DNA from: Candidatus Bathyarchaeota archaeon
GTDB taxonomy: Archaea; Thermoproteota; Bathyarchaeia; Bathyarchaeales; Bathycorpusculaceae
Length of the DNA: 64,000 bases
Direction of reading: 5' to 3'
NCBI GenBank assembly: GCA_963768425.1
Contig: CAVYHV010000022.1
Location: 1 to 64,000 of the forward strand
Part shown: positions 8,862 to 61,700 of the stretch, in pieces
Position numbering within the stretch: the first letter of the stretch is position 1
How the letters are laid out: each line of letters opens with the position of its first letter
Translations under genes and position numbers: made by a program
Notes under the pieces: generated by a model
Databases searched by the model: none
Told to the model about the DNA's origin: nothing
Seen by the model: the letters and a program-made list of their open reading frames with translations, nothing else

Positions 8862-9298
8862 TATTCTCCTCTCTCGCCTAATTAATATCGTATCATGTGC
8901 GCGCTACGCTTCATTTTCGAATTTGAAAGTTATTCACGGAAGGTTATTCTGTCTTCAGTAAGTAGAATATGTAGAGGCAAATAGACGATGGTTTTAAACT
9001 ATACTTTCGAGATTTGCTATGATATTTCGGTAAAGACAAAGATCAGAATGAGATGATGTGAAAGTGGCCTCATCGTATCTTTTTTGTTTAGGAAAAAAAT
9101 CATGCCTTTCTCCGCGTAGCCAATCTGCTTAATCATTAGAGTTGCAGCATTATTTGCAGCTTTAACCGCCATAAATGTTCAGAAGAGAAGTTTGCTGAAC
9201 CATTTGCAACGCCCACAAAAATATCATTTAAAAGTTCACTTAATGTTGAAAAAGATTAAGCGGGTTTAAGAAAAAACGTAGATAGCACGGTTTTCTGT

Positions 9299-10367
9299 CT
9301 ATGTTCGCTTTCTAAGCCACACGACGGATCCGCCTAAAACAAATACGGTGAGTACTACAAGGATTCCAAGTACATCTGGCGGCAAAGTGTATGATCCGCT
9401 GTTTTGGGGTGGTGTGGAGGAAGGACTTGTGCGGGCAGTTGTTGTTGGGGGTTGCAGTTGAATTGCTGTCGGCGTTGGCGTGACGGTGGGTGTTGCTGTT
9501 GGCTGGGTGCCATTAACCCTTATTAGTACTGTGCTGTTGTCGGTTCCAAGTGAATCTGTCACTGTTAATGTTACGGTGTAATTTCCTGGATTATTAAAAG
9601 TGTAATTTGCGATCTTGCCTGTGAGGGTTTGTTGTGTGCCATCCGTAAATGTCCAAGTGTAGGTTGCATTGGCTCCACTTGAGACGGATTGTGATCCATT
9701 AAAGACTACTGTTGTTCCTACTGGTACAGTTTGCTCTGTGCCTGCGTTAGCGGTTGGAGGCCCAGGAAGTACAAGGGAAACTATGCTTGTTGAAAAGTAA
9801 GAAGCGGGAACTATTTGGGGGTGAGTAGCTACTTGGTTTGTATAGTTCCGCAATGGGAGGGGACCCGTCAAGATGACTGCACGCCGAAAGTTATTGGAGT
9901 TGATTGAGTTTGTCTTATTATTTGAAAGGTCATGGTTGCAAGGGTGCCGCTTCCGCTTGCGGAGTCATCCACGCCATTTGAAGATGTGGAGATGTCGCAG
10001 GCTAATTGCGCTAACTTTGTAAGTATCCTAGCTGAATTGCGCCTGTAATACGGTAATTGGGACAGGCATAAAAAGTGTTGTAGTATTGACTGGACAGGAA
10101 GCTTCCTTCTTGCTTGCTTATTAAAGTAAGGTAATTGGTGTCCCAGGTGACGTTAACCGCCCATCCCCAGAGGTTTTGAACATTAGAAATGTCGATGTTA
10201 ACGGTGAATTGTTCGTTAAGTTGGGTCGCGTTGTATGTTGCAGGATCTAGAAAAACAGAGGGGGATTGTTGAAGTCTGTGCAGATGCTGTTTGCTGTGTG
10301 TCGGAATTGTTGGGATTATCATGGCTGCGATCAGTATCAGGAGTAAGGCTCCGACTGTTTTTTTCAA
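9299..10367 (-). CDS. Cohesin-PKD-linker-transmembrane anchoring scaffoldin (frameshifted)
   Basis: Signal peptide, cohesin (EQFTVNIDISNVQNLWGWAVNVTWDTNYLTLISKQEGSFL), PKD domain (PPTANAG...TYTWTFTDG...NPGNYTVTLTVTD), PT-rich linker, C-terminal TM helix ending WLRKRT. Confidence 0.78.
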
Positions 10368-10368
10368 G

Positions 10369-11406
10369 TTATTTTTGGCTCTCCCAGTAGAGTATGTAGT
10401 CTGATAGGAAGAGGAAGAAGTCGTTCGCATCGATTTTGCCGTCATGACCAAGGTCACATGCAGTATTATAAGGTTGTCCAGAGTTGCTTGCAATGTATGC
10501 GCTCAGGAAAGATGAAGAAGTCCGAGGAGTCTACTGATGCCGTCTCCGTTAAAATCTCCTGCAGGGGTAGTTGGGATGTTGAATGATGTAGTCGCTGTGC
10601 CGTAGTAGCCTGACCAAGTTCCAGGAAACATACACTTGGTAGGTGCCACCTTTGGTATCATTACTGATGGAAGCGTGAATGTCATGCTGTAAGCGCCAGC
10701 ATTGCCGCTGTTGCTTGGCGCGGGACCTGTAGCGGGACTGTTTCCTGTGCCTTGCTGCGATTTGGAATGTGAAAGATTGTTCTGCGGCGAGTGGAATGCC
10801 GCCGTTCTGGGGAAAATCGGTGTAAACATCTGCATAGCCATAGGCCGTTCCAGAGTGCGCATCCGTTGGGATTGGAATGTTCCCGTTTCAAGCTGATTTG
10901 CGTCCTTGCCGATTTGAACTTGGGCTGTGTATAGTCCAAGTGGGACGCCGTTGCCATCGTATATGCTGATTGCAATTAAGACTAAGCGGGCTTGGTGGTC
11001 TTGGTTTGCGACTGTCATGGAGAAGTAGCCGTTGCCGTCGTTGTAGAAAGCCTGCTACAGGGTTGCCGTTTCCATCAGATGCGTAAGCAGACGAAATTTT
11101 TTCGGGCTCGCTAAATTCTGTTGCTGTGCCTGTTTCGATGGTTCTTAAAACCATGGGAACTGCTCGTCCGCTCGACTGGGTATAATATTTGTATTCCGAC
11201 GAGACCATCGCTTGGATTTTCGCTGTCTACGCCGTTATCAAGAGCGAAAGCGATCCACTAATTGTGATGGGCTGATAGAAATCGTAAGTTGTTGTCTGAT
11301 TTGTTGTTACTGTTAGATTTAGTGATGATGTTTGAGCATGTACTAATGCTGCACTTGAGATTATTAATATAAAAAGAAAAGAAAGGGATATGATTTTTGT
11401 TTTCAT
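10369..11406 (-). CDS. Secreted Ig-like protein with C-terminal dockerin (frameshifted)
   Basis: Signal peptide MKNKIISLSFLFILIISSAALVHA. Reconstructed C-terminus GDFNGDG...DFFIF...AYIA...NTACDLGHDGKIDANDFFLFLSDYILYWESQK* shows a duplicated Ca-loop/helix dockerin. Confidence 0.72.
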
Positions 11407-11415
11407 ATCTTATCA

Positions 11416-13639
11416 CTAACTTCCGTTGTATATGTATAGCGAAGCTTGTTGCTGTGGTGAGAATGCTAAGTCCGTTGTTTGCTGGTGTGTTGTTGAGTAT
11501 GTTGACATCGACGATATGCTGGTCCTACGAATGCCCATGTTGGAAGCGTTAAGCTCATGGTGTATGTCTGTCCGATATTGCCGCCTGCAACGTTTGGTGC
11601 TGCTGGGTGCAGTTTCCATCATTACTGTGCATGCGACTGGCACGTTATTTGCGTCGAAGACTGTTGCTGTCAGGTAGAATGTTGTTGGAGTCCAGTTGAA
11701 GCTGTAGACTGGTGCTGTAAGGGTTACAACGTTGAGTCCTGCATAGTTTCGGAAGAAGACTGGGCCTACGTTGTTGCTGTCATAGACGCCGTTGGTGATT
11801 GTTATGGGTTGTAGGCTAAGTGCGTATCCGTAGTAGAATTGGCATGTGTCAGTTAATGTTACTTGAGATACGTCGACTGATCCGGTCACTGTGACTATGC
11901 CGAAGTAGCTTGTTGGGTTGCTGTCTTGCCAGGGTAGTCTGTATGAGGTTGTTGCATATCCGTTTGCGTTTGTTGTTGCTGTGACTACGTCAATGTAAAC
12001 GCCGTTTAGGTATATGTCGAAGGTGACTGTTTTGAGTGCGACTGGTGCGCCGTTGAATGTTACGAGTGCTGTTAGGTCAACTAATTGTTGGGGTCCGAAT
12101 GCTGATGCTGGTTGATTGAGTCCTTGTCCGCCGTTTTGTGTCCAGATGTCGAGTATGCCGTTTGACCAGTTATTCCAGCCTGCTGGAAGCGGTGGAAGAA
12201 CTGTTAAACTGAATGTTGTGGTGCCGGTTTCTGTGTATGTTGGTGCTGGGGTGTTGGTTGGTGAGGGTGCTGTAACTGTTAAGGTTGCAGTTATTGTTCC
12301 TGGGGTCATGCCTACTTGAGCTGCTGTTAAGGCAACTGTTCGGTGTGCTTGCGGTCACTATTGTTCCGCCGATTAGGGTTATGCTCCAAGCGTATGTTGT
12401 GATTGGGCAGCTCTGTCCTGGTGGAATAGTGTTTTGGCCTGGTTGTGATGGTGTTCCGTCGAAGGTTATGGCGTAGTTTGTTAGAGTTTGGGTGTTGCCT
12501 GCGCCGAATGGACTTCCTTCAGTGGTTACTGACTGCTACTGGTCCTGTTGCAGCTGCTGGGGTCCATGAGTATGTTGCGCCTGTTAGGATTGGTGCTGGC
12601 GTTATTACTTGAGCTGGGAGAGCGTCGTTTACTGAGTTCCTGGGGTTCCTGCTGTGAGACCGAGGGCACTGTTGCCGTAGCTGAGGATTTGGAATGTTAA
12701 TGTGCATAAGTACGCCTGATGAGGCACTGTCGCTCATTTGTGTGCTGTATGCGTCGCTGATTCCTGCGTCAACTTTTCCTAGATAGTTGTCTATGAATCC
12801 TGGTGCGAACAATGTTGCGCCGCCTTGAACTTAGGTATGAGCCTTCGGTGACACCTGTGCATTCGAGTACGCTTGGATTCCATGTGACGCCTATGCTCCA
12901 TCCCCAAACATTGCCAAGGGCGCCGCTGATGTATGCATCAACGCTGAATGTTCCGCCGATTGGGTTGCTTGCAGATGGCCATGCAATGGCTGCATTTGTG
13001 GTTGATCCATGCTGGTACAGGTTAATGGTCGTTGATGGTGTTTGAACTGTGAGTGATCCGCTGTTGCATGTTACTGGGATGTGTGGAGAGCCTACGTCGC
13101 TTGTTGCAATCAAGTATCCGCCGTTGATGGTTATTGCACTGGTGCCGTAGCCAACCACGGTGAACGTCATAGTAATGACTACGCCTGCTGCGTCAGTTGA
13201 TTGATCTGCAGCTGTAATGGCTTGTGCTAAACCGCCTGAGATCGAGCCTGGATTGTCAACGTTGTCAAATAAGCTGCTTGAGGTTCCGGTGGTGGATACT
13301 GAGTCGCCGCCTGGTGCGTTGTCTGATAGGAATGGACCTGCTACAACTTTTGTCAATTGTACATACTGCTGTGTTCCAATTTACGGTGGGTATAGCCCAG
13401 CCCCAAATGTCGTTTGCGCCGCTGATGTAGATGTCGTACTTTACTGTTGTGCCGATTGGATTAGGGCTTGAAGGCACAGTAATGCTACTAACACTGGTTG
13501 ACCCTGATTGATATACACTAAAGGTGCCAGTGGTAGCTTGCGCGTGCACTGTACCCATTGCAAAGAACATTGACGCTAGCATAAAGAAAACTAGCGCCAA
13601 TGCTCCGATGCTTTTTTTGTTTGTTAGGTTTAGTTTCAT
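11416..13639 (-). CDS. Major two-cohesin scaffoldin / S-layer-like protein (frameshifted)
   Basis: Strong RBS (GGAAAGGAG), signal peptide ending VHA-Q, two cohesins (KYDIYISGANDIWGWAIPTVNWN; GGTFSVDAYISGALGNVWGWSIGVTWNPSVLECTGVTEGSYL), PKD-like and Ig-like modules. Starts about 30 bp after the pstS-dockerin gene. Confidence 0.78.
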
Positions 13640-43206: not shown

Positions 43207-44286
43207 TTGCCTAAAAACTACACTTACACCGACGCGGGCGTAAACCGGCAACAACGCGTCGAGTCAAAAAAAGTCCTAAAAGACCTGCAGGAAACCTACA
43301 AGCATAGCCACTTCGGAAACGTGATGCGCCTGCCATATGGCAACATCTTTCCAGTTGGAGAAAACACCTTTTTAGACCTTGTTATCGAAGGAGTGGGCAC
43401 CAAAGTTCTTCTGGCACAGATGGCGGGGAAATATGACACTATAGGCGTTGATGCGGTGGCGATGGCGGTGAACGATGTCATCCGTTCAGGAGCAAGACCA
43501 CTTGCAATAGCCGACAACATTCACGCGCAAGCCAGCGAACCACGCCTCGTAAGAGAGTGGCTCAAAGGAATCATTCAAGGCGCTGCAGAAGCAGAATGCC
43601 CAGTTACAGGCGGCGAAACAGGTGACGTCGCAGAAATAATAAAGGGTCTTGTCGACAACGCCGGCTTTGATATGGTCGTTGCCTCGGTCGGCACGGTTGA
43701 AAGGGAAGAAATCATCACTGGTGAAAACATCAAGCCAGAAGACCCAGTAATCGGCTTACCAAGCAGCGGATTGCATAGCAACGGTTTAACAATGGTTAGA
43801 AAAATCCTGTTCAAGCAGTGGGGAGGAAAATACATGCCGAACGATATTCCGGAAGGTTTGGAGAGGGAAGTCGTGCTTGAAACGTTGGAGCCGACAAAAA
43901 TCTATGTAAGGCCGCTTCTCAAAGTAGCGAAAAAGGTCAAAGTCAAAGCGGCAGTCCACATAACCGGCGACGCCTACATGAAATTCAACAACTTGGCAAA
44001 TTATTCGCCGGGAATAGGCTTCGAATTTACCAACTTCAAACCGCAACCTATCTTCGCACTAATCCAAAAAACCGCATCCGAACTAGGCTACTGCATTTCT
44101 GATGAGGAAATGTTCAAAACCTTCAACATGGGATGGGGCTTCGGAATAATCGTTGATAAATCTGAAGCTGACAAAGCCATGAGCATGCTAGAGCAAGAAG
44201 GCGCAAAGCCTGAAATTATAGGCAAAGTGACAGGGAAACAAAATGTTGAAATAAAGCACAAAAACAAAAAGCTTGTTTTGACGTAA
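43207..44286 (+). CDS. purM: Phosphoribosylformylglycinamidine cyclo-ligase
   Basis: YTDAGVN, EGVGTK, AMAVND, GGET, SSGLHSNG, HITG and TFNMG motifs. Confidence 0.95.
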   Translation: MPKNYTYTDAGVNRQQRVESKKVLKDLQETYKHSHFGNVMRLPYGNIFPVGENTFLDLVIEGVGTKVLLAQMAGKYDTIGVDAVAMAVNDVIRSGARPLAIADNIHAQASEPRLVREWLKGIIQGAAEAECPVTGGETGDVAEIIKGLVDNAGFDMVVASVGTVEREEIITGENIKPEDPVIGLPSSGLHSNGLTMVRKILFKQWGGKYMPNDIPEGLEREVVLETLEPTKIYVRPLLKVAKKVKVKAAVHITGDAYMKFNNLANYSPGIGFEFTNFKPQPIFALIQKTASELGYCISDEEMFKTFNMGWGFGIIVDKSEADKAMSMLEQEGAKPEIIGKVTGKQNVEIKHKNKKLVLT

Positions 44287-44345
44287 AGTTTTGCGTTTTT
44301 TATGTCGAAAGCGTTTAAATCTTGAAGCATAATTTAAAGAATTTT

Positions 44346-44594
44346 ATGAAATACCGAGCGAAAATCGAAGTAAGCCTCAAACCAGGCCACAGCAACCCTG
44401 AAGGAGAAACAACAGCCCGTCTGCTGAAGGAACTCGGCTACAAAGTAGAAGCTGTGGAAGTAAGCAAACTCTACATAGTCTCGCTTGAAGCTCAAACGGC
44501 TAAAGAGGCAAATGCCAAGGCGGAAGAAATGAGCAAACGGCTCCTCGCAAACCCAACCAAAGACAACTACACCATCATCCTTGAGGAGCAATAA
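44346..44594 (+). CDS. purS: FGAM synthase subunit PurS
   Basis: LKPGHSNPEG...LLANP. Lies immediately before purL. Confidence 0.92.
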   Translation: MKYRAKIEVSLKPGHSNPEGETTARLLKELGYKVEAVEVSKLYIVSLEAQTAKEANAKAEEMSKRLLANPTKDNYTIILEEQ

Positions 44595-46978
44595 TGAACT
44601 CTAACATTTTCCACCCATGCAAAACAAATTATGCTCTCTACGAAGCAGTCTTAAAAGAAGCTAGCGATCAGCAACTCGCCGAACTCAATAATGAATTGGC
44701 CTTGGGATTGAGCCTTGAAGAAATGAAAAGTATCCAAGACTACTTCAAAGCAGAAGGCAGAAACCCAACTGACGTGGAGCTTCAAACCATCAGCCAAACA
44801 TGGTCCGAACACTGCTACCACAAGACCTTCAAAGGAAAAATCCTTCTCGACGGCAAAGAAATCGACAGCCTCTTCAAAACCTACATTGCAAAAGCGACCA
44901 AACAAATCAAAGCACCTTGGTGCTTTAGCGTCTTCGAAGACAATGCAGGCATCGTCCGCTTCGACCTTGGCTACGGCATAGCCGCAAAAGTCGAAACCCA
45001 TAACCACCCCTCTGCCGTAGAACCCTTCGGCGGAGCAGCCACTGGAGTCGGCGGCGTAATCAGGGACATATTAGGCGTGTGGGCTGATCCGATCGCATGC
45101 ACAGACGTTTTAGGCTTTGGACCGCTCGATTACGATTACAACAAACTTCCGGCAGGCGTGAAACATCCCAAGTACGTTTACATGGGCGTCACCGCGGGCA
45201 TAAGCGCCTACGGAAACAACATGGGGATTCCAACAGTCAACGGAGCAATTTACTTTGATGAAAGCTACACAGGCAACGTCACCGTATACTGTGGATGTAT
45301 AGGACTTCTTCCCCTTGCAAAATTTACAAAAAATGCCAAGCCAGGGCACATTTTGGTTTTGGCAGGTGGAAAAACTGGACGTGACGGTATTCACGGCGTA
45401 ACATTTGCCTCAGCGGAATTGACTGAGAAATCTGAGGAAATTTCTCGACCGGCTGTCCAAATTGCCGATCCAATTGAAGAAGAGAAAGTGAAAAGGGCGA
45501 TAATTGATATTCGCGATCTTCAACTTGCTTCCGCGACAACTGACCTTGGCGGAGGGGGATTATCATCGGCGGTAGGGGAAACAGCGGAGCGGTTCAACTG
45601 CGGAGTAACCATCGACCTCGCCAAGGTGCCGCTGAAGCATATTGGTTTGGCTCCGTGGGAGGTTTACATTTCAGAATCCCAAGAAAGAATGCTCATAACG
45701 GTTCCTCCTGAAAACCTGGAAAGGGTTATGGAGGTTTTTGAAAAAGAAGACGTGGAAGCAACGGCAATTGGCAAACTCACAACTGAACGTCGTCTGAAAC
45801 TCAATTTTAACGGCGAAAAAGTTGGTGACATGGATATGGCATTCCTGTTTAATCCATGCAGCAGCATGAAAACAGCCAGCATCGAAACTCAAACATTCGT
45901 CGAACCCCAATTTCCTGCTCCCGAGAGCTTCACCGATACTCTGCTTCAGTTGCTTGCCGCGCCTAACATCGCCAGCAAAGAAAGCGTCATACGCACATAT
46001 GACCATGAAGTTAAAGGTAACACGACACTAAAACCTCTTCAAGGAGTGTACGCTGGACCAAACGATGCCGCCGTACTCAAACCGCTTGACAATTCATGGA
46101 GAGGTCTCGCGATTTCCTGCGGCATGAACCCGAATTACGGCAAAATTGACCCATACTGGATGGCGGCTTCCGCGATTGACGAGGCGGTTAGAAACAACGT
46201 TGCTGTTGGGGGAAGAAGGATCGCTTTGCTTGATAATTTCACTTGGGGTAACCCTGAGAAGCCAGAGCGTTTAGGCTCATTGGTTCGGGCTTGTGAGGCA
46301 TGCTATGATTTCGCCGTCGAGTTTAAGACGCCATTTATCTCGGGAAAAGACAGCTTATACAATGAATCCCCGATGGGTCCCATAACGCCCACACTGCTAA
46401 TTACAGCTGTAGGCATAGTTCCCAACCTTCAATTCGTCACTTCTATGGATCTGAAGTCGCCAGGTAACTTGCTTTACATTGTAGGCGAAACCTTCAACGA
46501 ACTCGGAGGCTCAGAATACTACAAGCTCAAGGGCTACTTGGGATCAAGCGTTCCAAAAGTTAAAGGCGCCAAAGCCAAACGCACATTCAGAGCAGTAACC
46601 AAAGCCATAGATTCAGGCTTAGTCAGGTCATGCCATGACCTCTCCGAAGGTGGGTTGGCGGTCGCGGCTGCGGAGATGGCGTTTGCGGGCGGCTATGGTT
46701 TGAACTTGGATTTATGCAAGGTGCCTGGCAAAGGTCTGGAGCGCAACGATTTCGTGTTGTTTTCTGAGTCGAATAGCCGATTCCTGCTGGAAGTGTCAGA
46801 GCGGGACAAAGAAGACTTTGAGGCAAAAATGAAAGATAAGCCCTTCGCTCAAATCGGCACGGTCACTAGGGAAGAGCGGCTTGTCATTAACGGGTTGGGC
46901 AAGAAAATGGTTGTCGACGCTTCAATTGCAGAGTTGCGGAAAAGCTGGAAGAAAACGTTCGGGGTAGAAACAAAATGA
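44594..46978 (+). CDS. purL: FGAM synthase subunit PurL
   Basis: WSEHCYHK, KVETHNHPS, GAATGVGG, SESQERM, YDHEV motifs. Confidence 0.96.
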   Translation: MNSNIFHPCKTNYALYEAVLKEASDQQLAELNNELALGLSLEEMKSIQDYFKAEGRNPTDVELQTISQTWSEHCYHKTFKGKILLDGKEIDSLFKTYIAKATKQIKAPWCFSVFEDNAGIVRFDLGYGIAAKVETHNHPSAVEPFGGAATGVGGVIRDILGVWADPIACTDVLGFGPLDYDYNKLPAGVKHPKYVYMGVTAGISAYGNNMGIPTVNGAIYFDESYTGNVTVYCGCIGLLPLAKFTKNAKPGHILVLAGGKTGRDGIHGVTFASAELTEKSEEISRPAVQIADPIEEEKVKRAIIDIRDLQLASATTDLGGGGLSSAVGETAERFNCGVTIDLAKVPLKHIGLAPWEVYISESQERMLITVPPENLERVMEVFEKEDVEATAIGKLTTERRLKLNFNGEKVGDMDMAFLFNPCSSMKTASIETQTFVEPQFPAPESFTDTLLQLLAAPNIASKESVIRTYDHEVKGNTTLKPLQGVYAGPNDAAVLKPLDNSWRGLAISCGMNPNYGKIDPYWMAASAIDEAVRNNVAVGGRRIALLDNFTWGNPEKPERLGSLVRACEACYDFAVEFKTPFISGKDSLYNESPMGPITPTLLITAVGIVPNLQFVTSMDLKSPGNLLYIVGETFNELGGSEYYKLKGYLGSSVPKVKGAKAKRTFRAVTKAIDSGLVRSCHDLSEGGLAVAAAEMAFAGGYGLNLDLCKVPGKGLERNDFVLFSESNSRFLLEVSERDKEDFEAKMKDKPFAQIGTVTREERLVINGLGKKMVVDASIAELRKSWKKTFGVETK

Positions 46979-47797
46979 AGCAGGAAGAAATCAAAGCCTG
47001 TGTCATGCGCGTCGGCGGAACCAATTGTGACGCTGAAACACAGCGAGCTTTCCAAGAGTTAGGCATTCAGGTTGATGTCCTGACACGTAAACGAACTGGT
47101 GAAACTGCATAACCTACTTGATTATCAAGTGCTGATTTTCCCAGGCGGCTTCTCTTTTGGAGATTACGTGCGTTCAGGTGTAATTTTTGCAAGGCATCTT
47201 AGCGCGAAGTTAGGCAAAGAAATGGAAACGTTCATCGACGAAGGCAGACCAATTCTGGGTATATGCAACGGCTTCCAAATAATGGTTGAATACGGTTTGC
47301 TACCGGGATTCAAAGGTGTAAGTTCATATCCAGAAGCCACATTGACGACAAATGAGCCTGCAGGCTTCAAGTGCCAGTGGATTTACCTTAAACATGAAAA
47401 CCGCGGAAAATGCGCCTTCACAAATAAAATCGCTCCTAACAAAGTGCTTCGAATGCCTATTGCCCATGGGGAAGGCCGGTTGCTTTTCCCGAAAGAAAAA
47501 GAGGAAGCGTTGCTGGCAGAACTCGTCGAAAACGACATGGTTGTTTTCCGTTATTGCGACAATGACGGCAACGTCGCCGACGGAAAATACCCAGTTAACC
47601 CAAACGGGTCATTCTACGACATCGCTGGCATATGCAACAGAGAAGGTAACATATTCGGACTGATGCCTCACCCAGAAAGAGCCATGTTCTGGTGGCAGCA
47701 ACCCGATTGGACGCAACAACAACAGATGCCTCACTACGGGGATGGAAAACTAATCTTCCAAAGCATAATCGATAGACTAACCAAAAAATGCCCTTAG
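46975..47797 (+). CDS. purQ: FGAM synthase glutaminase subunit PurQ (frameshift near 47085)
   Basis: ATGA overlap with purL. GGTNCD, PGGFSFGD, LGICNGFQ, AHGEG, NPNGS and GLMPHPER motifs. Confidence 0.94.
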
Positions 47798-48694
47798 ATC
47801 TTCTGAAGAAGGCAAACCCGCGCGAGCACCCATCTGCGCGACGCATCTTGAAGCAACAAAATTGCCGAAGCGCCCGCATTCGAACAGGCTTTTCTCTTTG
47901 ATTAATCCGTAAAGAAATCCAGCGCAGAAAGCATCCCCTGCACCAGTTGTGTCGACTACTTTAACTTTGAAAGGCTCAATTCTCAGCCTTTCCTCCCCAT
48001 CCGTGACGTAGCAGCCCTTTTCCCCGAGCTTGACCGCGACAATTTTGACTCCTGCATCAAGCATCAAATCTGATGCTCTGCGGATATCAGGTTCTCCGGT
48101 TAAAAGTTCAAGTTCGCCAATATTTGGCATCAAAATGTAGGAGCTTCGAATTATCGGCTCTATAGCCGCAAAACCTTTCTGTGCATACAATGAACCAGGG
48201 TCAAAGCTGATTTTGACATTTGTACTTAATGCGCCTAAGAGCTTTTTTTGCGCCCGAAAAGATTTCTCACCAACAAAGGATGAGTAATGCAGAAACTTCG
48301 TTTCAGAGGGGTATGTGTAATTGATTTCCCGAGGCTCAATCGTGTCGTTGACGCCCGGATTGACGTATAGTGCTCTTGCGCCTTTCTTGTCTACGAATCC
48401 TAAGACTGAACCGCTTTTTCCATGCTTAGCCTGAATTATACCTGCCGTGTCGACTCCTTCAGTTTTGAAACAGTCAATTTGCAGTTTGCCTTCCCTGTCA
48501 TCCGCCACTTTTCCGATGAAGCCAACTTTGCAGCCTAGTCTTGCTAACCCAACTGCAGTGTTGGCCGCTGAGCCGCCGCAGGATTCCTTGTAATCTTCAA
48601 CGAAGCTTTCTTCCTCCGCGCCAGCCAATCGTTCAACTTTCAGAAGGGTATCAACGTTAAGCGCGCCGAAACCTACAAAATCAAATTTTGTCAC
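47777..48694 (-). CDS. PfkB-family carbohydrate/nucleoside kinase (EhaT-like)
   Basis: GGSAANTAVGLARLG and VDTTGAGDAF signatures. Confidence 0.9.
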   Translation of the reverse strand: MTKFDFVGFGALNVDTLLKVERLAGAEEESFVEDYKESCGGSAANTAVGLARLGCKVGFIGKVADDREGKLQIDCFKTEGVDTAGIIQAKHGKSGSVLGFVDKKGARALYVNPGVNDTIEPREINYTYPSETKFLHYSSFVGEKSFRAQKKLLGALSTNVKISFDPGSLYAQKGFAAIEPIIRSSYILMPNIGELELLTGEPDIRRASDLMLDAGVKIVAVKLGEKGCYVTDGEERLRIEPFKVKVVDTTGAGDAFCAGFLYGLIKEKSLFECGRFGNFVASRCVAQMGARAGLPSSEDLRAFFG

Positions 48695-49599
48695 GAAAAT
48701 AACTCCTTCAAGTTAATTTTGTGATCGCCCAATTTGCCGCCGTAGTTTCCCGCGGAAACCTTCATCATCCCATCAACATCAAGCACAGCTTCGATTCCTA
48801 CCTTGGTTGCCCGCTTTACCGCGTCTAAAGAGACCCCGTTAAAGACTATTTCGGCTATGTAGCCCACGCCGTCGGGCACAAGGGATTCTTTGCCCAACTT
48901 CTTCTTAAGGGATGGACAGTAAAGGTGATTTGTAGTGGGTCCAATCTTGGGAAAATGGGTTTCTGGTTTAGAACCCGCTGAGCAAACATCGAAGGGTGTG
49001 ACAACGCCAGACAATTCGTGTATTGCAACTAAGGCTTTCTCACCCGCAGACTTTAGAGCTTGTTTGGTTTTACAAAGAACCCAAAAATTGCCGCCCATAA
49101 CCCCGCGAGCGTAGCCAAGGTAACGTTCAATCACGAAGTCTGGAACCATCAATGGAACCACGATTACTTCTCTACCGAACCGTTTTTCAACCCACTCATA
49201 ACCATCGCCGCAGTGTCCAACAGTCTCCATCAGGTCCAGTTTGCCCTCAGGGTTTGGCAGGGCATCATAGACGGCAGTGAAGGGCTTAACTAAGATGTCT
49301 TGGCGGATGCGGTAAGAAAGTTCAGTCTCGAATTTCTTTACGGATTGTTCAAAGGTTTTTTTAGGGTTGATTTCTCCCCAGAACTGCAGCAGCACACCCA
49401 AGCGTTGGTCTGGGGTTTCCTTTTGACTGAGATATCTTTCAACTCCGCCCTCTGTTCTGCCGATTACAACAGAAGGGGTTGCCGTCGAATCCTCAGCCGC
49501 CTTACGCAGGGTTTCCTCGTCGTCGGCGGTAACAATTACACGACAAAAAAGTCCAGTAAAAGCCTCAGCGTACGTGTCATCTATCTCCAGTTTCGCCAT
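48691..49599 (-). CDS. ftr: Formylmethanofuran:H4MPT formyltransferase homolog (Ftr paralog, EhaS-like)
   Basis: IDDTYAEAF, EGGVE...TPD, RIRQDILVKPFTAVYD, GVMGGNF, SAGSK, TTNHLYCPSL, EIVFNG and SAGNYGGKLG motifs. Confidence 0.88.
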   Translation of the reverse strand: MAKLEIDDTYAEAFTGLFCRVIVTADDEETLRKAAEDSTATPSVVIGRTEGGVERYLSQKETPDQRLGVLLQFWGEINPKKTFEQSVKKFETELSYRIRQDILVKPFTAVYDALPNPEGKLDLMETVGHCGDGYEWVEKRFGREVIVVPLMVPDFVIERYLGYARGVMGGNFWVLCKTKQALKSAGEKALVAIHELSGVVTPFDVCSAGSKPETHFPKIGPTTNHLYCPSLKKKLGKESLVPDGVGYIAEIVFNGVSLDAVKRATKVGIEAVLDVDGMMKVSAGNYGGKLGDHKINLKELFS

Positions 49600-49600
49600 A

Positions 49601-50683
49601 TCACCCGAGTTTCCCAACTGCTACTCCTCGCACTTTCTTTCTAAACTCGCTACTTTCTTTTATTAGTATTTCCATGTTTTGGTCTGTCACTATTTTCGCT
49701 TTGGGCAACGCATCAGGATACAACTGCGAAAGCTGTTTGAGCAAAGAAGAGTCAACTTCGCTGTTGTTGAGGATTTCGTAACTCCAACCTTGAAGAGTAT
49801 TGAGAGCTTTTTCTTTCCCGAATCTGCAGAACAAATCTGCAATAACAGCTGTGACAAGGCTACTTTCTGACAAAACCGCGACTTCGGCGTTTCTAACAGC
49901 ATACCCGTTGCCGTTGAAGGAAACTGTTAATCCGCCGCTCTCGCGCACCAGCCTGAAGGCTTCCACGTCGGTGATGCTGTCACCAACGTACAAAACTTCT
50001 GATAGTTCTGAGCCCAAACGTTTCACTGTATCTCGAATTGCCTCAGCCTTTTGTTCCCCACCGACGGTTACGATGTCTGTGAGGAATTTGCCGACGAACA
50101 TCTTTGGGATTAAACTCCAGAAGATCTCATCCAAGCGTTTGATAGCTTCTTGATCAACAAATGAGAAATCTTCGATGGTTCTTGCAGATGCAGAAATATC
50201 TATTAAGGGCATTTTTGCGATTTCTTGGGCTACCTGTTTTAGGCGGTCTTTTTCGTGGGGGGTGATTCCGCATTTGTCGAGTTTAAGTTTGGTGCAGTAG
50301 GTATTTTTGTATGGGAAATCTGTGGCTTTGCAGAGTGCTTTGATGTAGTGTTCGTAGCTGGTGCTGACGATGAATGCGTCGGCGATGTCTTGCACATGGT
50401 TTATTGTGGTTTGGCTGTTGGCGATTAGGAGAATGTTGTCGGCGGAGAACTCGTCCATCTGCTTGTCTGAGAGGCTGTACGCTTTGAAAAAAGGCAAAAT
50501 AAGCTTCAGAGTGCTTCCAGCGGAGTAGCACGGTTTGTGCAGAACATCAGCAAGCACGTCGTCGTACTTGCTTATGTTTGTGAATAGCTTGTCGCCGTTG
50601 GGAATAAAATTCGCGGCTAACTCGAAGGCATTATCGTTTTTGCTTATTGGTCCCTCGCAGTCGGAAATGAACACACGTTTCAC
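49601..50683 (-). CDS. HAD-superfamily hydrolase (EhaR-like)
   Basis: DCEGPISKNDNAFEL, IVSTSYEHY, YVGDSITDVEAF and SFNGNGYAV motifs. Confidence 0.85.
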   Translation of the reverse strand: MKRVFISDCEGPISKNDNAFELAANFIPNGDKLFTNISKYDDVLADVLHKPCYSAGSTLKLILPFFKAYSLSDKQMDEFSADNILLIANSQTTINHVQDIADAFIVSTSYEHYIKALCKATDFPYKNTYCTKLKLDKCGITPHEKDRLKQVAQEIAKMPLIDISASARTIEDFSFVDQEAIKRLDEIFWSLIPKMFVGKFLTDIVTVGGEQKAEAIRDTVKRLGSELSEVLYVGDSITDVEAFRLVRESGGLTVSFNGNGYAVRNAEVAVLSESSLVTAVIADLFCRFGKEKALNTLQGWSYEILNNSEVDSSLLKQLSQLYPDALPKAKIVTDQNMEILIKESSEFRKKVRGVAVGKLG

Positions 50684-52095
50684 GCTTTGCCCCTCAAACT
50701 CTCCATGTGCCTGACCGCTTTAGCGATATGCTGCTTTGAGGCGACATCAGTTCGGCTCCACAACCCGCCGCCACTGATTGCCCGAGTACCTTCAAGGCTT
50801 ATGCTGCGTGCTTCCTCGATGTTCGCCCCTATGCCTAAAACACCAACGGCGCGGGATTTGAGCGCGAAGTTTTTGCCATCCCTCGTCTCCATCGAGCCGG
50901 GGTAGACGCGGATACGGTTGCCGTATTTCTTAGTGAGTGCCTGGGCTTTCGACAGATCAACTGAAGTGTTAGCCTCCTCCTTGTTGGCTTTGTTCGGGAA
51001 GGCTTCCGCGTAGCCTCCGTACTCAAGCGGGACTTTATATGTTAAAACTGACGCGGCATTCTCCATTTTGACGCTTGTCAAGTTTCCTTCTATCATATTG
51101 AAGCAGACGTCGACAAAGTCGTCTTTGATTAGCGCGAGAAGATTGATGATTTCTGGATCTCCTGGGCGACTGTTGTTCTCGAGAACTTTGATACCGTGGC
51201 CTGTATGCATAAAGGCAAGGTAGAGCGGGATACCTCTAAGGGCGGAGTCATCTTTGATTTTGGCTTTCCATCCTTTGAAAATCTTATTGGCCAAGGTGAG
51301 CTCCTCTTCGCGTTCAGCCGCAGTTAGAAAAGGCATTTTGTCGTCAATGTCCTTGTATGAGCCCATGCCTCCCGTGTTCGGGCCACGGTCGTCGTCAAAG
51401 GCACGTTTGTAATCGCGCGTGTCTGGAAGGGCAACGAAATGCTTGCCATCGCAGAACGCCATGAAACTGGATTCTTCCCCATCAATTTTCTCTTCGATTA
51501 TTACGCTGCCATACCTGAAGTTGGACATAAAATGCTCAAAAAGTTCCCCGCGGTTAGCGAAATGGTCGCCCCAAACGCCCACACCTTTCCCAAGTGCCGG
51601 TTTATCAGGTTTAACGACAGCCTGATTATCAAGTTCATCAAGCCAACGCCAAACAGCGCCCTTAACATCTCCAGATTCCTTGTACTCAGTGGGGCTGAAA
51701 ACTTTGAACCGCGGGTTTGCTTCCGGCGCAATCTCGTCGAAAAGGACGCGCTGCTCCACTTTGCTTACTTCTATGGCGTACTGTTGCTTTGGGCAGATAA
51801 CGGGTATGCCTGTTGATTTTTCAATTTGGTCGCGGACGCCGTCTATTATGGGTTTTTCTGACCCGACCAGGACGAAGTCGATTCTGTCTTTGTTTGCTTG
51901 GGCGAATTTGCATATCTCCTTCACATCAAGGCTAGGGATAACGGCGTGTTTTGAAGCTTTCTCAGCATTGTAGGAGTTGCGTTGTTTATCAGCGATATAG
52001 AGTTCCACTTGGTAACGTGTGCTTTGCAGCAACGCGTCGACCATGGCGACCTCTCTTGCACCGTAAGAAATTACGAGTACGCCTATTTTCTCCAT
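50680..52095 (-). CDS. purD: Phosphoribosylamine-glycine ligase (divergent)
   Basis: YGAREVA, IEVSK, VVKPD...GKGV, IEEKIDGEE, DYKRAFDDDRGPNTGGMGS and SRPGDPE motifs. Confidence 0.92.
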   Translation of the reverse strand: MEKIGVLVISYGAREVAMVDALLQSTRYQVELYIADKQRNSYNAEKASKHAVIPSLDVKEICKFAQANKDRIDFVLVGSEKPIIDGVRDQIEKSTGIPVICPKQQYAIEVSKVEQRVLFDEIAPEANPRFKVFSPTEYKESGDVKGAVWRWLDELDNQAVVKPDKPALGKGVGVWGDHFANRGELFEHFMSNFRYGSVIIEEKIDGEESSFMAFCDGKHFVALPDTRDYKRAFDDDRGPNTGGMGSYKDIDDKMPFLTAAEREEELTLANKIFKGWKAKIKDDSALRGIPLYLAFMHTGHGIKVLENNSRPGDPEIINLLALIKDDFVDVCFNMIEGNLTSVKMENAASVLTYKVPLEYGGYAEAFPNKANKEEANTSVDLSKAQALTKKYGNRIRVYPGSMETRDGKNFALKSRAVGVLGIGANIEEARSISLEGTRAISGGGLWSRTDVASKQHIAKAVRHMESLRGKA

Positions 52096-52142
52096 AATGG
52101 TTACACCTGTAACTGCAAGCGGCAAGAAGGTTGAGGGTTGTG

Positions 52143-53627
52143 CTATTCTTTGGGTTGGGCTTCCTCGGTTTCATAGATTCTTGATTTTTCCTCGTAGCCT
52201 TCAAGGAACCTCTTTTTCATAGCGTCAGCCATCTTTTGAGCACAGGGCGTTGGGTACTTGCCTGTGATGCAGGCCATGCATAGTTCATTTTCTGTTTGAC
52301 CTGTCGCCTTGATCAATTCTTCAATCGACTGATAGCACACTCTGTCTGCACCGATGATTTTGGCGATTCCTTCTGCATTGTGCTTGGAACCGATGAGTTG
52401 CCCGTAAGTTGACATATCAATGCCATAGAAACAGGGGCCAATGATTCTTGGGAACGTGACGAATACATAGACTTTTTTGGCTCCTGCCTTTCGGAGCTTG
52501 TCTATTATGACTTTTGTCGTGTCTCCCCGGACTATGCTGTCCTCGGTTATTATGACTCGTTTTCCGTCTACTTTGGAGCCTAGAATGTTGATTTTCTTGT
52601 CGATTGTTGAGAACCGCTCGGTGTTAAGAAGTATAAACGCGCGTTCAGTTACGTAGCGGTGCCGTCTGGAAGCCCGCTCCCATCGCAGTCCTGAGGCTTC
52701 ATGGACTCCCATAGCGGGGTCGTCGCCTGTCTCAGGCACGGACAGGATTATGTCGCTGTCTTGAACCACCTCTGGAAACTCGCGAACGATGTTCCTCCCA
52801 AAGTCCTCGCGGATTTCATAAACATATTTGCCGTCAAACCTTGAATCTGGCCTAGCAAAATAAGCATATTCAAACGCACAAAAAGCTGGACGAGGCTTCT
52901 CGATGAGTTGCATGCGTTTGAATCCGTCTTTTGAAGCAGTAACCAACTCGCCTGGGTTCAGTTCGAAGTCCCGTAAAAAGCTGTTCATGTCTAACCCAAC
53001 AGTTTCAGAGCAGAATGCAAACGTTGCTCCTTGCGGGTCGTGCCCAGCGCAAAGGGGTTTTATTCCGTGAGGGTCTTTGAAAGCGAAAAAGTCGCCGTCG
53101 CCCGTCAGCCCAGTTACGGAGAATGCGCCGTCAAGGCTTTCCATAACGGACTTAACCGCTGATGCCAAGTCTTTTCCCTGTTTAAGTCCCAGGAGCAGTT
53201 TGTGGCAGACGACGTCTGAGTCGCAGTTGAAGTAGAAGTCAGAGAAGTTTTCAGTCATTTCTCTTTTGAGAGGCAACGTGTTGACGATGTTGCCGTTGAA
53301 TGACAAAGCTAGTTTTATGTTGCCTGAGGATGCATAGACCGGCTGAGTGCCTTCGACGATTGAAGTGTCGTCGCATTTGCCTGAAGTTGTGTATCGCACG
53401 TTGCCGATGCCTACTGGACCGGGCAGACGGTCAAACCATTCATGTATCGCCTCATTTCTGAGGCGGGGAACTAAATCGAGGCTTTTGTAAACGTGAAACT
53501 TGTTGTCGTAGGTTAAGAAGCCGTGGGATTGGTGTCCTCGATGGTTTTGGGCGCGGAGACCCCAATATACATATGGGAAGACCGTTTGGTTTTCAAAGTT
53601 TTTTGCTCCGAAGATACCGCAGCCTAT
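52143..53627 (-). CDS. purF: Amidophosphoribosyltransferase
   Basis: The frame stays open upstream of ORF 52143..53399 to GCGIFG...QNHRGHQSHG. Also CAFEYAYFARPDS, EDSIVRGDT and PCFYGID. Only ATA is available as a start codon. Confidence 0.93.
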   Translation of the reverse strand: MGCGIFGAKNFENQTVFPYVYWGLRAQNHRGHQSHGFLTYDNKFHVYKSLDLVPRLRNEAIHEWFDRLPGPVGIGNVRYTTSGKCDDTSIVEGTQPVYASSGNIKLALSFNGNIVNTLPLKREMTENFSDFYFNCDSDVVCHKLLLGLKQGKDLASAVKSVMESLDGAFSVTGLTGDGDFFAFKDPHGIKPLCAGHDPQGATFAFCSETVGLDMNSFLRDFELNPGELVTASKDGFKRMQLIEKPRPAFCAFEYAYFARPDSRFDGKYVYEIREDFGRNIVREFPEVVQDSDIILSVPETGDDPAMGVHEASGLRWERASRRHRYVTERAFILLNTERFSTIDKKINILGSKVDGKRVIITEDSIVRGDTTKVIIDKLRKAGAKKVYVFVTFPRIIGPCFYGIDMSTYGQLIGSKHNAEGIAKIIGADRVCYQSIEELIKATGQTENELCMACITGKYPTPCAQKMADAMKKRFLEGYEEKSRIYETEEAQPKE

Positions 53628-53830
53628 CTTTTGTCCCTTCTCGCCTTGATTGGGGATGTAAGTGAAAAAAGGGGTTTATCAGCTTTTAGTACATATTTAG
53701 CTCAAAAGCATGGCTTTTTGACATTTTTAAGGTTTAAAGTAAACAAGAAGCGGGAAGTGTTTTTTGGGCGTAGAATTTTGTTGTTTGTGTTTTGAGCTGG
53801 ATTCTTGATTTAGGCTTTGAGGCGTTTGCA

Positions 53831-59194: not shown

Positions 59195-61544
59195 TCACTC
59201 CTTCATTTTCCTGATCATTCTTGGAAGCAATGTTGGGTCCGGTATTACTGTTTCTTTCCAGTCGTGTGCTTCCAGTATCTTGGTGAATTCGTCTTTCATG
59301 GTCATTGGGATATCAGCCATTGTTCTCACGAATAAGTGTAAGTCGTTTGGCATAACTCCCATGTAGCGTTTGCTTAAGTCAACGTAGTGGCTTAGTTTTA
59401 TGCTGCGTCCTTTCCATGTGTCGTTTGGTCTGATGCAAAGCTTTGCGATTGCAACCATGCATTCCTCTTTGGTTTCTACTGTGTTGAAGAGGTGTTCTGG
59501 TGCGGGTCCGACTCTAACTTTGTCGCCTGTACGTGCATCGTAGACTTCGAAGTCTTCGGGGTGGTCTTCTCTGCCAAGGAGCATTCGACGGTACTTAACA
59601 CCATGCGGTCCGACGAGAACGGGTATGCCTAAGCGCCAGAATCCAGCGCCTATAGCTGCAGCTTTCTGTGAGTATGCACCCCACGCTAGACCAACAGCAC
59701 CTAAGCGGTTGTGGATGTAATCTGCGATTTCTTCGTAATTGCCGCGAAGTGGGCGTTTTGCGAATATGTTTGCTACTTTGATTGCAGCGCCTGCGATGTG
59801 GCTGTTTGCGACGCATGAGCCAACGTTAAGTACTCCTCCCGCTTCAAATCCGCCTGGAAATTCTTCGTATAGTGTTTGTCCGTCGCTGTTGCGGTAACTG
59901 CCTGCGGACATTGCTGAGCATCCTGACAGTACTACGATGTATCGTCTTAGAGCAAATTCTCGACAAATGTCGTAGACGTCTTTGCCTCCTTTTGGATAGT
60001 TGCTGCATCCTACTACTGCAACGATACCTGGGATTTCTCCGAGCACTATTGGGCTACCGACATTGCGGATTTCAACGTCTGAGACTGCGCCTCTGCCAAC
60101 GCGGCACAGGTTATCTTCAGCGAGCATTGCCTTTTCGCCTGATTTGATGATTAGACTATGAATCATGATTTTTTGCGGGCAAGCTTCTTCGCATCTTCCG
60201 CATCCAATGCAGGTCTCATAAAGATCTTCTAGTAAGGATAGGTCACCTTTTGCTGCTGCTTTGATGGCTGCTGGAATCGCGTAGTCTTGTGGGCAGTTCC
60301 GTTGGCAACTCTTGCATTGAGTGCAGGTCTTAGCGATCTGTGTAATTTCCTCTATGGTTGGAAGACTGGTCTTTCGTTTGCGTATAGGAGCAACTTTTTG
60401 GGCGACACGTACTGCGACTTCGCCGACTTTTTCTGGATCAAGAATTAGCACGCCTTTGACTTTGCCGCTAACGAGGTCAGCAACGATTTCGTCTGCTGGA
60501 TCGTTTGTACGGTTCTTGAAGCCCATGCAGTTCTTTTCGGATGCTGCAATTACTGGAGCGTTGACTTTACCGGCTTCGTCATAGACGTCTGTTCGGATAC
60601 ATTGTTCGTCAAGTACAACTACATCGGCTAAGCCTGCACGTATGAATCTTAGCTCCCAACTGATAGGTCCAACAACTCTTGCACGATTATAGTATCTTGT
60701 CATGTCGTGTGCCGTGCAACATAAGCCCGACAACTTCGATTTTCTCGTCAACTTTGTTTTCTTTTGCGTAGTCAATTATTCCGATTGATGGAACAACGTT
60801 GTGGCCAATGCACATGATGACTGGTTTTGTTCGATCAACGCTTCCGATTCCGAGTTTTACAAGAGGTGCTTCTGCGTCCGCTTTTGGATAGCCTAATGTA
60901 GAAATTTGTGCGATATCTCCGACTTCCATTCCGACATGGTCAATCATACCGACGTGAAAAGCTTTAGATTCAAAGTCTAAATTGTTGCCTTCTTGACCTG
61001 TATGTCCTACCGCGAGAATTTGGGTGATTTGCTCTTCTGTGTAAGTTAAAATATCCTCCAAGTCGCCAAGTGTTTCAGGCTTTATACCAGTAACAAGGCG
61101 GCTAACGGGCGCTTCAACTTTTATGTTCAGACCTCCAACGTCTAACGGAGTTCTGCGTCCATATTTTTCAATTAAATGGTGAAGAAGATGGCGTGAGTGG
61201 GCTGTATGGCAAGCGGCTCCAATTGCGCAAGCTAACATCACGATGCGAGATGATTGAGTCGCGATGTCTATTCCGCATGCGCCTCGTTTCCCTGCTGTCA
61301 AATCGCATTTTCCAAAAGTACATAGACAGCAAAGGTCACAGTCGGGCATGTAGAAGGGCTTGTACTTGTTTAGGAGTTTCATGTCCCAGTCTCGTAGGGT
61401 GGTCATGGAGGGCATTGGAGTTGGTCCCATGGGTTCAGTGTAGTTGTCGTTGACAACTTTGCCAATGGAGACTTCGAGGTTTTTAATAAGACCTGAGTTG
61501 GTCTTCATTTCGCCTATTTTTACGTTAACGTTTTTAGCAGTCAA
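59195..61544 (-). CDS. cdhA: ACDS alpha subunit (Ni-CO dehydrogenase), one frameshift near 60725
   Basis: LRDWD...CDLCCLCTFGKC...GACG, IGHNV, GLCCTAHD, two ferredoxin-like CxxCxxCxxxCP motifs and GSCVANSH. Confidence 0.95.
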
Positions 61545-61700
61545 ATTAATGACTCCTCTGTAAAGGTTTAGGTATAAGACTGCCATGATTTGTTTTTAAA
61601 CCTTTCCAGAAATCGAGGCAAAAGTCATGATCCAATTACAGAAATGTTAAGGTTCTGAGAAATTGTGTAAAGAAAGAGCCAGAGAATATATACACGCTGA

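Follow-up and report, generated by a model that had tools for sequence, protein, structure and literature searches.

A probable three-gene replacement for PurN and PurT in the purine operon of a bathyarchaeon

In a 64,000-nucleotide stretch of DNA from a soil archaeon of Candidatus Bathyarchaeota (assembly GCA_963768425.1, contig CAVYHV010000022.1, positions 1 to 64,000; here called the window), a purine biosynthesis operon continues into three genes that encode a haloacid dehalogenase (HAD)-like protein of the EhaR family, a divergent paralog of formylmethanofuran-tetrahydromethanopterin (H4MPT) formyltransferase (Ftr), here called Ftr2, and a kinase of the PfkB family. Judging from comparative genomics of mostly incomplete metagenome-assembled genomes (MAGs), we consider it probable that this ehaR-ftr2-pfkB module replaces PurN and PurT in the third step of purine synthesis, in which glycinamide ribonucleotide (GAR) is converted to formyl-GAR (FGAR). 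Ftr2 would then be the enzyme that transfers the formyl group in this step, and EhaR and PfkB would be its obligatory partners.

The operon consists of purF-purD-ehaR-ftr2-pfkB, arranged head to tail on the minus strand from position 47777 to about 53627. Amidophosphoribosyltransferase (purF; 52143-53627, with its Cys codon at 53621-53619) matches TIGR01134 with 317.9 bits (cutoff, 350) over model positions 1-432, and GAR synthetase (purD; 50680-52125) matches TIGR00877 with 234.9 bits (cutoff, 288) and has the GARS_N, GARS_A, and GARS_C domains. These are followed by the 360-amino-acid (aa) EhaR-family protein (49601-50683), which has weak HAD matches in its C-terminal half, by the EhaS-like Ftr2 (48691-49599), in which PF01913 and PF02741 cover both lobes, and lastly by the EhaT-like kinase (47777-48694; PF00294, 188 bits). 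The initial annotation had described purD and the trio as tightly coupled, and this is borne out by the sequence: the purD stop and the ehaR start overlap in GTGA, as do the ftr2 stop and the GTG start of pfkB, and a single base separates the TGA stop of ehaR from the ATG of ftr2 at 49599. The list of open reading frames (ORFs) begins ftr2 at a TTG at 49617 (48691-49617), but the ATG at 49599 fits the homologs and is likely the true start. Metatranscriptome contigs from two runs of one study, derived from relatives that are 90-99% identical, touch all five genes. None of these contigs spans a junction between the genes and DNA carry-over is possible, so they provide no evidence of an operon transcript.

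Neither purN nor purT was found in the window, as had been claimed, and the gap extends to the whole assembly (33 contigs, 91.3% complete), where neither exceeded its cutoff. The PurN model TIGR00639 and the Formyl_trans_N domain (PF00551) had no matches in the assembly. For PurT, an ATP-grasp enzyme that acts on free formate, the top match to TIGR01142 reached 52.7 bits against a cutoff of 502, and the assembly held only such weak ATP-grasp matches. The purD and purF genes of the operon are the sole copies in the genome, although both score under the NCBIfam cutoffs. The pathway has a second formylation, that of 5-aminoimidazole-4-carboxamide ribonucleotide (AICAR), and for this the genome has two PurP genes in tandem (G000:C6:102410-104049). 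Since PurN and PurT were not found and PurP accounts for the second formylation, step 3 is the one formylation left without a candidate. The presence of Mch and the failure to find formate-tetrahydrofolate (THF) ligase (Fhs) in the genome fit an H4MPT-based C1 metabolism.

To place this gap in context, we profiled 151 Bathyarchaeia genomes, drawn evenly. EhaR was present in 62 and Ftr2 in 57, all of them among the 62, so that Ftr2 never occurred without EhaR (0/57). The five EhaR holders that lack Ftr2 (G002, G010, G034, G028, and G140) all carry a different protein, which we call PurNv; in Bathyarchaeia, this is a Formyl_trans_N protein of 281-330 aa whose gene adjoins purD. In the two loci that were read closely, purNv is flanked by purD and ehaR, and in one of them (L036) it overlaps each neighbor by 4 bp. 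Not one of the 62 EhaR holders had PurN over the cutoff or a PurT-like match of at least 225 bits. Among the PurD-positive genomes without EhaR, on the other hand, 54 of 63 had PurN, a PurN-like subfamily scoring about 100 bits, or a PurT-like gene. Sorted by step 3 candidate, the 122 PurD-positive genomes comprise 54 with EhaR and Ftr2, 5 with EhaR and PurNv, 16 with PurN over the cutoff, 26 with the PurN-like subfamily at about 100 bits, 12 with a PurT-like gene, 2 with weak matches only, and 7 with no candidate. In G090, which holds the trio, the locus belongs to an assembly of a single 2.15-Mb contig, listed as 97% complete. We also considered that the 100-bit class might be PurNv without EhaR, but it is a separate subfamily (25-29% identity to PurNv), whose gene directly follows purD in one genome (G071).

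The genomic position of the trio is conserved as well. In 20 loci from 13 Bathyarchaeia families, the order purD-ehaR-ftr2 was found in 16, with pfkB directly next in 14 of these, and the cluster often faces purM-S-L-Q. In 8 of these 16 loci, purF immediately precedes purD, and in 2 it lies elsewhere in the stretch; it was not found within the stretch in the other 6, one of which is cut short by a contig end. Three of the remaining four loci have PurNv in place of Ftr2, and the fourth (L045) has ehaR-ftr2-pfkB without purD. In this last locus, the reading frame of EhaR extends over 604 aa (L045:6393-8204, in G081), with FAD-binding and 4Fe-4S motifs in its upstream part, and may represent either a gene fusion or two genes read through. 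The PurD proteins linked to the trio score 205-270 bits in Bathyarchaeia, compared to >300 bits for the others, which raised the idea of a divergent PurD coevolving with the trio. This idea was rejected, as 23 of 30 bacterial holders of EhaR (described below) have a canonical PurD, most scoring 520-597 bits; the PurD difference in Bathyarchaeia therefore reflects lineage rather than function.

We then asked how Ftr2 relates to characterized formyltransferases. Both lobes are present at full length, as in Ftr (PF01913, 149.8 bits; PF02741, 178.1 bits; residues 8-306 covered), and the protein exceeds the cutoff of the subfamily model NF002554 (334.2 bits; cutoff, 297) but not that of the equivalog TIGR03119 (229.4 bits; cutoff, 292.6). 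A search for a second, canonical ftr, as suggested in the initial annotation, located one on contig C17, so the genome has two Ftr genes. Against the solved Ftr structures (1FTR, 1M5H, and 1M5S), Ftr2 scores 157-183 bits, about half the score of the C17 copy (305-316 bits). Across the 151 Bathyarchaeia genomes, matches to the Ftr2 of the window fall into two classes, one with at least 265 bits and at least 49% identity (Ftr2) and one with at most 213 bits and at most 42% identity (Ftr1); the sole exception is a short fragment adjoining ehaR. By its bit scores and this bimodal split, Ftr2 is not orthologous to the biochemically characterized Ftr. Ftr2 differs from Ftr1 by an insertion of about 11 residues and by invariant motifs of its own, and it differs from Ftr also in occurring only with EhaR and in its site in a purine operon. 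It retains a Glu at the candidate catalytic position of Ftr, presumably the position of the catalytic Glu in the Methanopyrus kandleri enzyme. No protein of the trio matches the Formyl_trans_N or PurT-type ATP-grasp fold, and the folds of PurN and Ftr2 are unrelated.

The module is not confined to archaea. Scanning with an EhaR alignment, with one genome per species, gave 248 loci. The best 80, which we examined, are almost all bacterial and come from Thermodesulfobacteriota (including Desulfobacca, Syntrophobacterales, and Thermodesulfatator), Dehalococcoidia, Ammonifex and other Clostridia, Nitrospirae, Latescibacterota, Aerophobetes, and others. Among these 80 loci, PurNv adjoins ehaR in 41 and PfkB in 34, many loci being truncated by contig ends; the bacterial order is pfkB-purNv-ehaR. 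Where ehaR stands alone, a PurNv-like match lies elsewhere in the genome in those checked. The same module, with PurNv for Ftr2, is thus found in some Bathyarchaeia and in many anaerobic bacteria. PurNv has PurN as its best family match, at 65-75 bits against a cutoff of 150, and keeps the N-x-H-P ... D-x-G-P pattern. PurN, which performs the step proposed here for the module, works alone; PurNv differs from it in falling far under the cutoff, in its length of about 280-330 aa, and in its partnership with EhaR. The most telling neighborhood is that of an Ammonifex MAG, in which the genes run hpt-guaA-purE-purB-purC-purF-purM-[pfkB-purNv-ehaR]-purH. The module here occupies the interval between purM and purH, which we take to be the place of purN in the pur operon of Bacillus subtilis. 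The retention of purH in this operon, together with the two PurP genes in the bathyarchaeal genome, also rules out AICAR formylation as the task of the trio.

Gene content in bacteria gives a similar picture. Of 30 bacterial holder genomes, 26 have PurD, 1 (G161) has PurN over the cutoff, and none has PurT. For one phylum, we drew 121 genomes evenly and found EhaR in 26 and a PurN-type protein (at least 112 bits) in 63, with no overlap; that is, PurN-type proteins occur in 0 of 26 EhaR holders and in 63 of the 95 other genomes. PurNv is present in 26 genomes of this sample, 23 of them with EhaR, and PurT is present in 1. A genome titled as a complete chromosome (G167) contains EhaR, PurNv, and PurD, and neither PurN nor PurT was found in it. 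The phylogenetic profiling proposed in the initial annotation therefore shows mutual exclusion between the module and purN/purT in two independent samples, Bathyarchaeia and one bacterial phylum, with few exceptions.

Ftr2 and PurNv replace each other in place, keep the same partners, and do so where PurN and PurT are missing. This is most simply explained by a module that performs GAR formylation and has the transferase as its exchangeable part. The initial annotation had regarded the trio as standing in for missing purN/purT in archaea that use H4MPT. The first part of this proposal withstood the comparative tests: neither gene turned up elsewhere in the genome, the trio and these genes anticorrelate, ftr2 is not a sole, canonical ftr, the trio exchanges Ftr2 for a PurN-like protein in place in some lineages, and it lies between purM and purH in one bacterial operon. 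The restriction to H4MPT-using archaea did not hold. As bacteria carry the module with a PurN-like transferase, adaptation to H4MPT chemistry does not account for the HAD-like protein and the kinase.

Several observations weigh against replacement of PurN/PurT by the module. One trio holder (G149) also has a 100-bit PurN-like gene, one EhaR holder (G001) has a 175-bit PurT-like match, and one genome (G254) has PurNv together with a 126-bit PurN-like gene. In a Dehalococcoidia MAG (G161; L069, C13 ~7800-11600), pfkB-purNv-ehaR is followed by a canonical purN (194 bits). Furthermore, no candidate was seen in 30 of the 121 bacterial genomes or in the 7 PurD-positive Bathyarchaeia genomes mentioned above, so either genes are called absent from MAGs with some error or there are additional variants. 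As related genomes are not independent samples, the Fisher values for the 121-genome phylum overstate the association and are descriptive only. The need for a kinase and a phosphatase-like protein is also unexplained, most sharply in bacteria expected to have 10-formyl-THF, an expectation that follows from the presence of PurH in the same Ammonifex operon. From the literature, in the portions of the two papers available to us, N10-formyl-H4MPT is not believed to be a formyl donor (Brown 2011, PMC3261824), and Ftr2 occurs in anaerobic methanotrophic archaea (ANME) of groups 2a and 2b, which also have PurN (Chadwick 2022, PMC9012536).

One could alternatively suppose that the product of the trio is a different formylated ribosyl compound, for example, an intermediate of a cofactor, that its place beside purine genes is incidental, and that another enzyme performs step 3. 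The link between the trio and GAR is drawn from genome comparison, which leaves room for such a product, and in Methanothermobacter, according to the accessible part of the report, the genes are in the eha operon and not with pur genes (Kaster 2011, PMC3087415). The neighbors of the putative PurT-like::EhaR fusions, described below, are likewise unrelated to purines. Nevertheless, we consider a different product improbable in view of the mutual exclusion with PurN/PurT in two samples, the position of the module between purM and purH in Ammonifex, the family match of PurNv to PurN, and the canonical purN that directly follows ehaR in G161.

To evaluate what the partners of the transferase may do, we looked for catalytic residues. 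In 20 EhaR sequences, the invariant residues are D8-x-E10-G-P, S107-T108, K212, and G234-D-S-I-T-D239. HAD motifs II (S/T), III (K), and IV (GDxxxD) are thus present and invariant, whereas motif I reads D8-C-E10-G-P rather than the classical DxDx(T/V), with Glu replacing the second Asp. This Glu is invariant in the 20 sequences and present in 118 of 130 family members, and the nucleophile Asp, the Lys, and GDxxxD are kept in nearly all 130. A DxE form of motif I is found in the active enolase-phosphatase. Family models place the protein only loosely (HAD-IB TIGR01488, 31.8 bits against a cutoff of 45; Pfam matches at or just above their cutoffs). The profile also matches, with 170.6 bits, a homolog of solved structure, AF1437 of Archaeoglobus fulgidus (PDB 1Y8A). 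This "hypothetical protein" without an assigned function has the same D-x-E-G-P start, and its C-terminal part is shorter in the alignment.

The kinase is covered by PF00294 over its full length and is closest to ribokinases (TIGR02152, 171.7 bits; cutoff, 299.65), although it reaches no equivalog model. Across 53 trio-linked homologs from both domains of life, N13-x-D15, GG40-41, N45, E194, and G251-A-G-D254 are kept, the G251-A-G-D254 motif and the Mg-ATP Glu E194 in 52-53 of the 53 sequences. In ribokinase, the N-x-D motif holds the ribose diol. As the HAD and kinase motifs are kept, EhaR and PfkB both look catalytically competent.

Since EhaR and PfkB accompany both types of transferase, they should act on the acceptor side of the reaction, most probably on the ribose 5′-phosphate end of the acceptor. 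Our preferred, although tentative, sub-mechanism is a nucleoside shunt in which EhaR would dephosphorylate GAR, Ftr2 or PurNv would formylate glycinamide riboside, and PfkB would rephosphorylate the product with ATP. Such a cycle of kinase and phosphatase would have a net cost of one ATP, the same as that of PurT, the alternative enzyme for this step, and would turn the step irreversible. The gene order purD-ehaR-ftr2-pfkB mirrors the proposed order of reactions, the catalytic GAGD, the NxxE-type residues, and the N-x-D motif are all retained in PfkB, and HAD motifs I-IV are likewise preserved in EhaR, where Glu stands for the second Asp. Both transferases that accompany EhaR diverge from their canonical forms. 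In addition, a 599-aa protein (P0298), with a second member in its cluster, is a natural PurNv::EhaR fusion, whose PurNv part shares 52% identity with the PurNv inside the L036 cluster; consecutive enzymes are often fused. On the other hand, it is not evident what would make two unrelated transferases depend on an acceptor without its phosphate, and 10-formyl-THF in the bacterial holders should be a good donor even without an ATP-driven pull. The substrates of EhaR and PfkB and the intermediates of the shunt are purely putative.

The main rival to the shunt, which we regard as rather doubtful, is that the transferase formylates GAR directly, with EhaR as a binding or channeling partner or a proofreading phosphatase and PfkB salvaging ribosides that have lost their phosphate. 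The tight link between EhaR and the transferase, including the fusion, would fit a noncatalytic partner too, as would the nonclassical motif I and the separation of ehaR from purNv and pfkB in some bacteria. However, the conserved nucleophile Asp, Lys, and GDxxxD of EhaR argue for catalysis, and PfkB travels with the EhaR-transferase pair across two domains of life. Returning to the shunt, we see a fair way short of an even chance that it constitutes a third route of purine step 3, widespread in anaerobic archaea and bacteria, in which GAR is dephosphorylated, the riboside is formylated, and the product is rephosphorylated. The formyltransferase would be recruited by lineage, either an Ftr paralog using formyl-methanofuran (formyl-MFR) or formyl-H4MPT or a PurN-like variant.

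Other EhaR-bearing loci showed features of their own. Two proteins, P0303 (899 aa) and P0323 (961 aa), have an EhaR-like domain behind an N-terminal part of about 550 aa, whose best weak matches are to PurT (NF006766, 33 bits) and which aligns with PurT-like proteins of Bathyarchaeia in the same order, at 24-25% identity over about 200 aa. Should this homology be real, they would represent a third class of transferase tied to EhaR, a weak lead at present. Two metagenome loci of such fusions (L147:7001-9892 and L148:6968-9910) have neighbors unrelated to purines. In L068 and related loci of the Thermodesulfatator group, ehaR has no adjoining purNv or pfkB and stands divergently beside guaA (GMP synthase), with rhomboid and protease genes after ehaR. 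In three Desulfobacca-like MAGs (G151, G152, and G154), the sole PurD-like match is very divergent, with about 146-152 bits over model positions 54-392, in ORFs of 516-535 aa, whereas other bacteria with the trio have a canonical PurD. A search of seven bacterial loci for riboswitches found none at gathering thresholds.

The trio has a history in methanogens, where it was viewed in a different light. Our comparison to the EhaR, EhaS, and EhaT of Methanothermobacter is based on names from the Joint Genome Institute (JGI) and the text of the paper, and by these they belong to the same three families. EhaS and EhaT were first annotated as a formyltransferase and a ribokinase, functions judged unlikely because the genes are cotranscribed with eha (Kaster 2011, PMC3087415, as far as its available text goes). 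There, the three genes follow the hydrogenase genes, whereas here the trio follows purD. This history suggests another reading, namely, that the trio consists of subunits or accessories of the Eha hydrogenase or that Ftr2 is a second catabolic Ftr isoenzyme. Its basis is the cotranscription with ehaA-R in Methanothermobacter, where the products were taken as subunits (Kaster 2011, PMC3087415), the label "energy-converting hydrogenase A subunit R" that JGI gives to many EhaR homologs, and the listing of ftr-2 (AF2207) of A. fulgidus as constitutively expressed (Hocking 2014, PMC3949148). We nevertheless consider such a role very improbable. The trio is found among pur genes in the window and in the 20 Bathyarchaeia loci, and its neighbors in the window are pur and cdh genes rather than an eha operon; EhaR and PfkB accompany a PurN-like enzyme in bacteria without methanofuran/H4MPT metabolism; and Ftr2 was never seen without EhaR.

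The remaining features of the window concern the neighborhood of the operon. As claimed initially, the genes for purine steps 1, 2, 4, and 5 are clustered in the window, and all were found by profile matches. On the plus strand, purM (43207-44286; TIGR00878, 262.6 bits), purS (44322-44594; TIGR00302, 63.9 bits), purL (44594-46978; TIGR01736, 697 bits), and purQ (47099-47797; TIGR01737, 227 bits) converge on the operon that carries the trio. The start of purF at 53627 in the initial annotation could not be upheld in its standard form: the codon there is ATA, and no ATG, GTG, or TTG lies ahead of the catalytic Cys codon. The region (53610-53650, minus strand) reads AAG ATA GGC TGC, while the nearest relative (L028) has ...ATG GGC TGC, with ATG at this very place, and relatives have short propeptides of 2-8 residues before the catalytic Cys. 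Either purF starts at ATA, or this codon is a variant of the assembly, or the start of the gene is damaged. Upstream of purF lie cdh genes for acetyl-CoA decarbonylase/synthase. The names that close homologs of the proteins carry also point to Bathyarchaeia. The cdhA ORF (59195-60775, minus strand) matches TIGR00314 with 746.9 bits (cutoff, 781) over model positions 261-759 only, and a 299-aa ORF upstream of it (60687-61586, minus strand) overlaps it; cdhA (59195-61586, minus strand) may be split or frameshifted. Elsewhere in the genome, a short second Mch-like fragment with two TAA stops adjoins the intact mch (G000:C9:122611-122775). As PurH and PurO were not found in the genome, its IMP cyclohydrolase step is without a candidate.

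For the euryarchaeal lineages (Methanobacteria, Archaeoglobi, and ANME-1), we relied on published papers; our own genome counts are for Bathyarchaeia and bacteria. The statement in the initial annotation that several H4MPT-using archaea lack recognizable PurN/PurT agrees with the parts of two papers available to us. A GAR formyltransferase was not identified in two Archaeoglobi, four Methanobacteria species, and M. kandleri (Brown 2011, PMC3261824), and ANME-1, Archaeoglobales, and Methanobacteriales are described as lacking PurN and PurT (Chadwick 2022, PMC9012536). A separate section of the latter paper lists Ftr2 paralogs in ANME-1, ANME-2a/2b, Archaeoglobales, M. kandleri, and Methanothermobacter marburgensis. 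The occurrence of Ftr2 and the missing GAR step are not linked in the available text of either paper. Our literature search, whose full-text coverage lacks most subscription journals, so that earlier publication is possible, found no paper that gives a role in purine synthesis to the trio, PurNv, or AF1437.

The published labeling data bear on the formyl donor. Purine C8 derives from C2 of acetate in Methanosphaera stadtmanae but not from acetate in the CO2 reducer Methanobrevibacter smithii (both as quoted in Brown 2011, PMC3261824). The donor of Ftr2 would likely be the formyl-MFR/N5-formyl-H4MPT pool of the Wood-Ljungdahl pathway, and in M. stadtmanae, acetate C2 could reach formyl-H4MPT via serine and methylene-H4MPT. 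A donor from this pool would reconcile the C8 labeling of the two species. In 2012, Lie et al. reportedly found that Eha makes up for the formyl-MFR that biosynthesis consumes.

Published accounts have counted the GAR-formylating enzyme among the missing ones at least since 2011 for Archaeoglobi, Methanobacteria, and Methanopyrus, and since 2022 for ANME-1. Our analysis offers a concrete three-gene candidate for this step, tied to the long-unexplained ehaR/S/T, and the same module with another transferase is a candidate to fill the same gap in many anaerobic bacteria. If the assignment is correct, it would give a rationale for why Methanobacteria carry ehaR/S/T in the operon that encodes the anaplerotic Eha hydrogenase and would explain the differences in purine C8 labeling among methanogen species. 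It would also correct the annotation of thousands of genes now named "formylmethanofuran--H4MPT formyltransferase," "HAD hydrolase," or "ribokinase/sugar kinase" and fill a gap in the metabolic models of methanogens, Bathyarchaeia, sulfate reducers, and Dehalococcoidia. Possibly, these organisms would then handle a purine intermediate at the nucleoside level.

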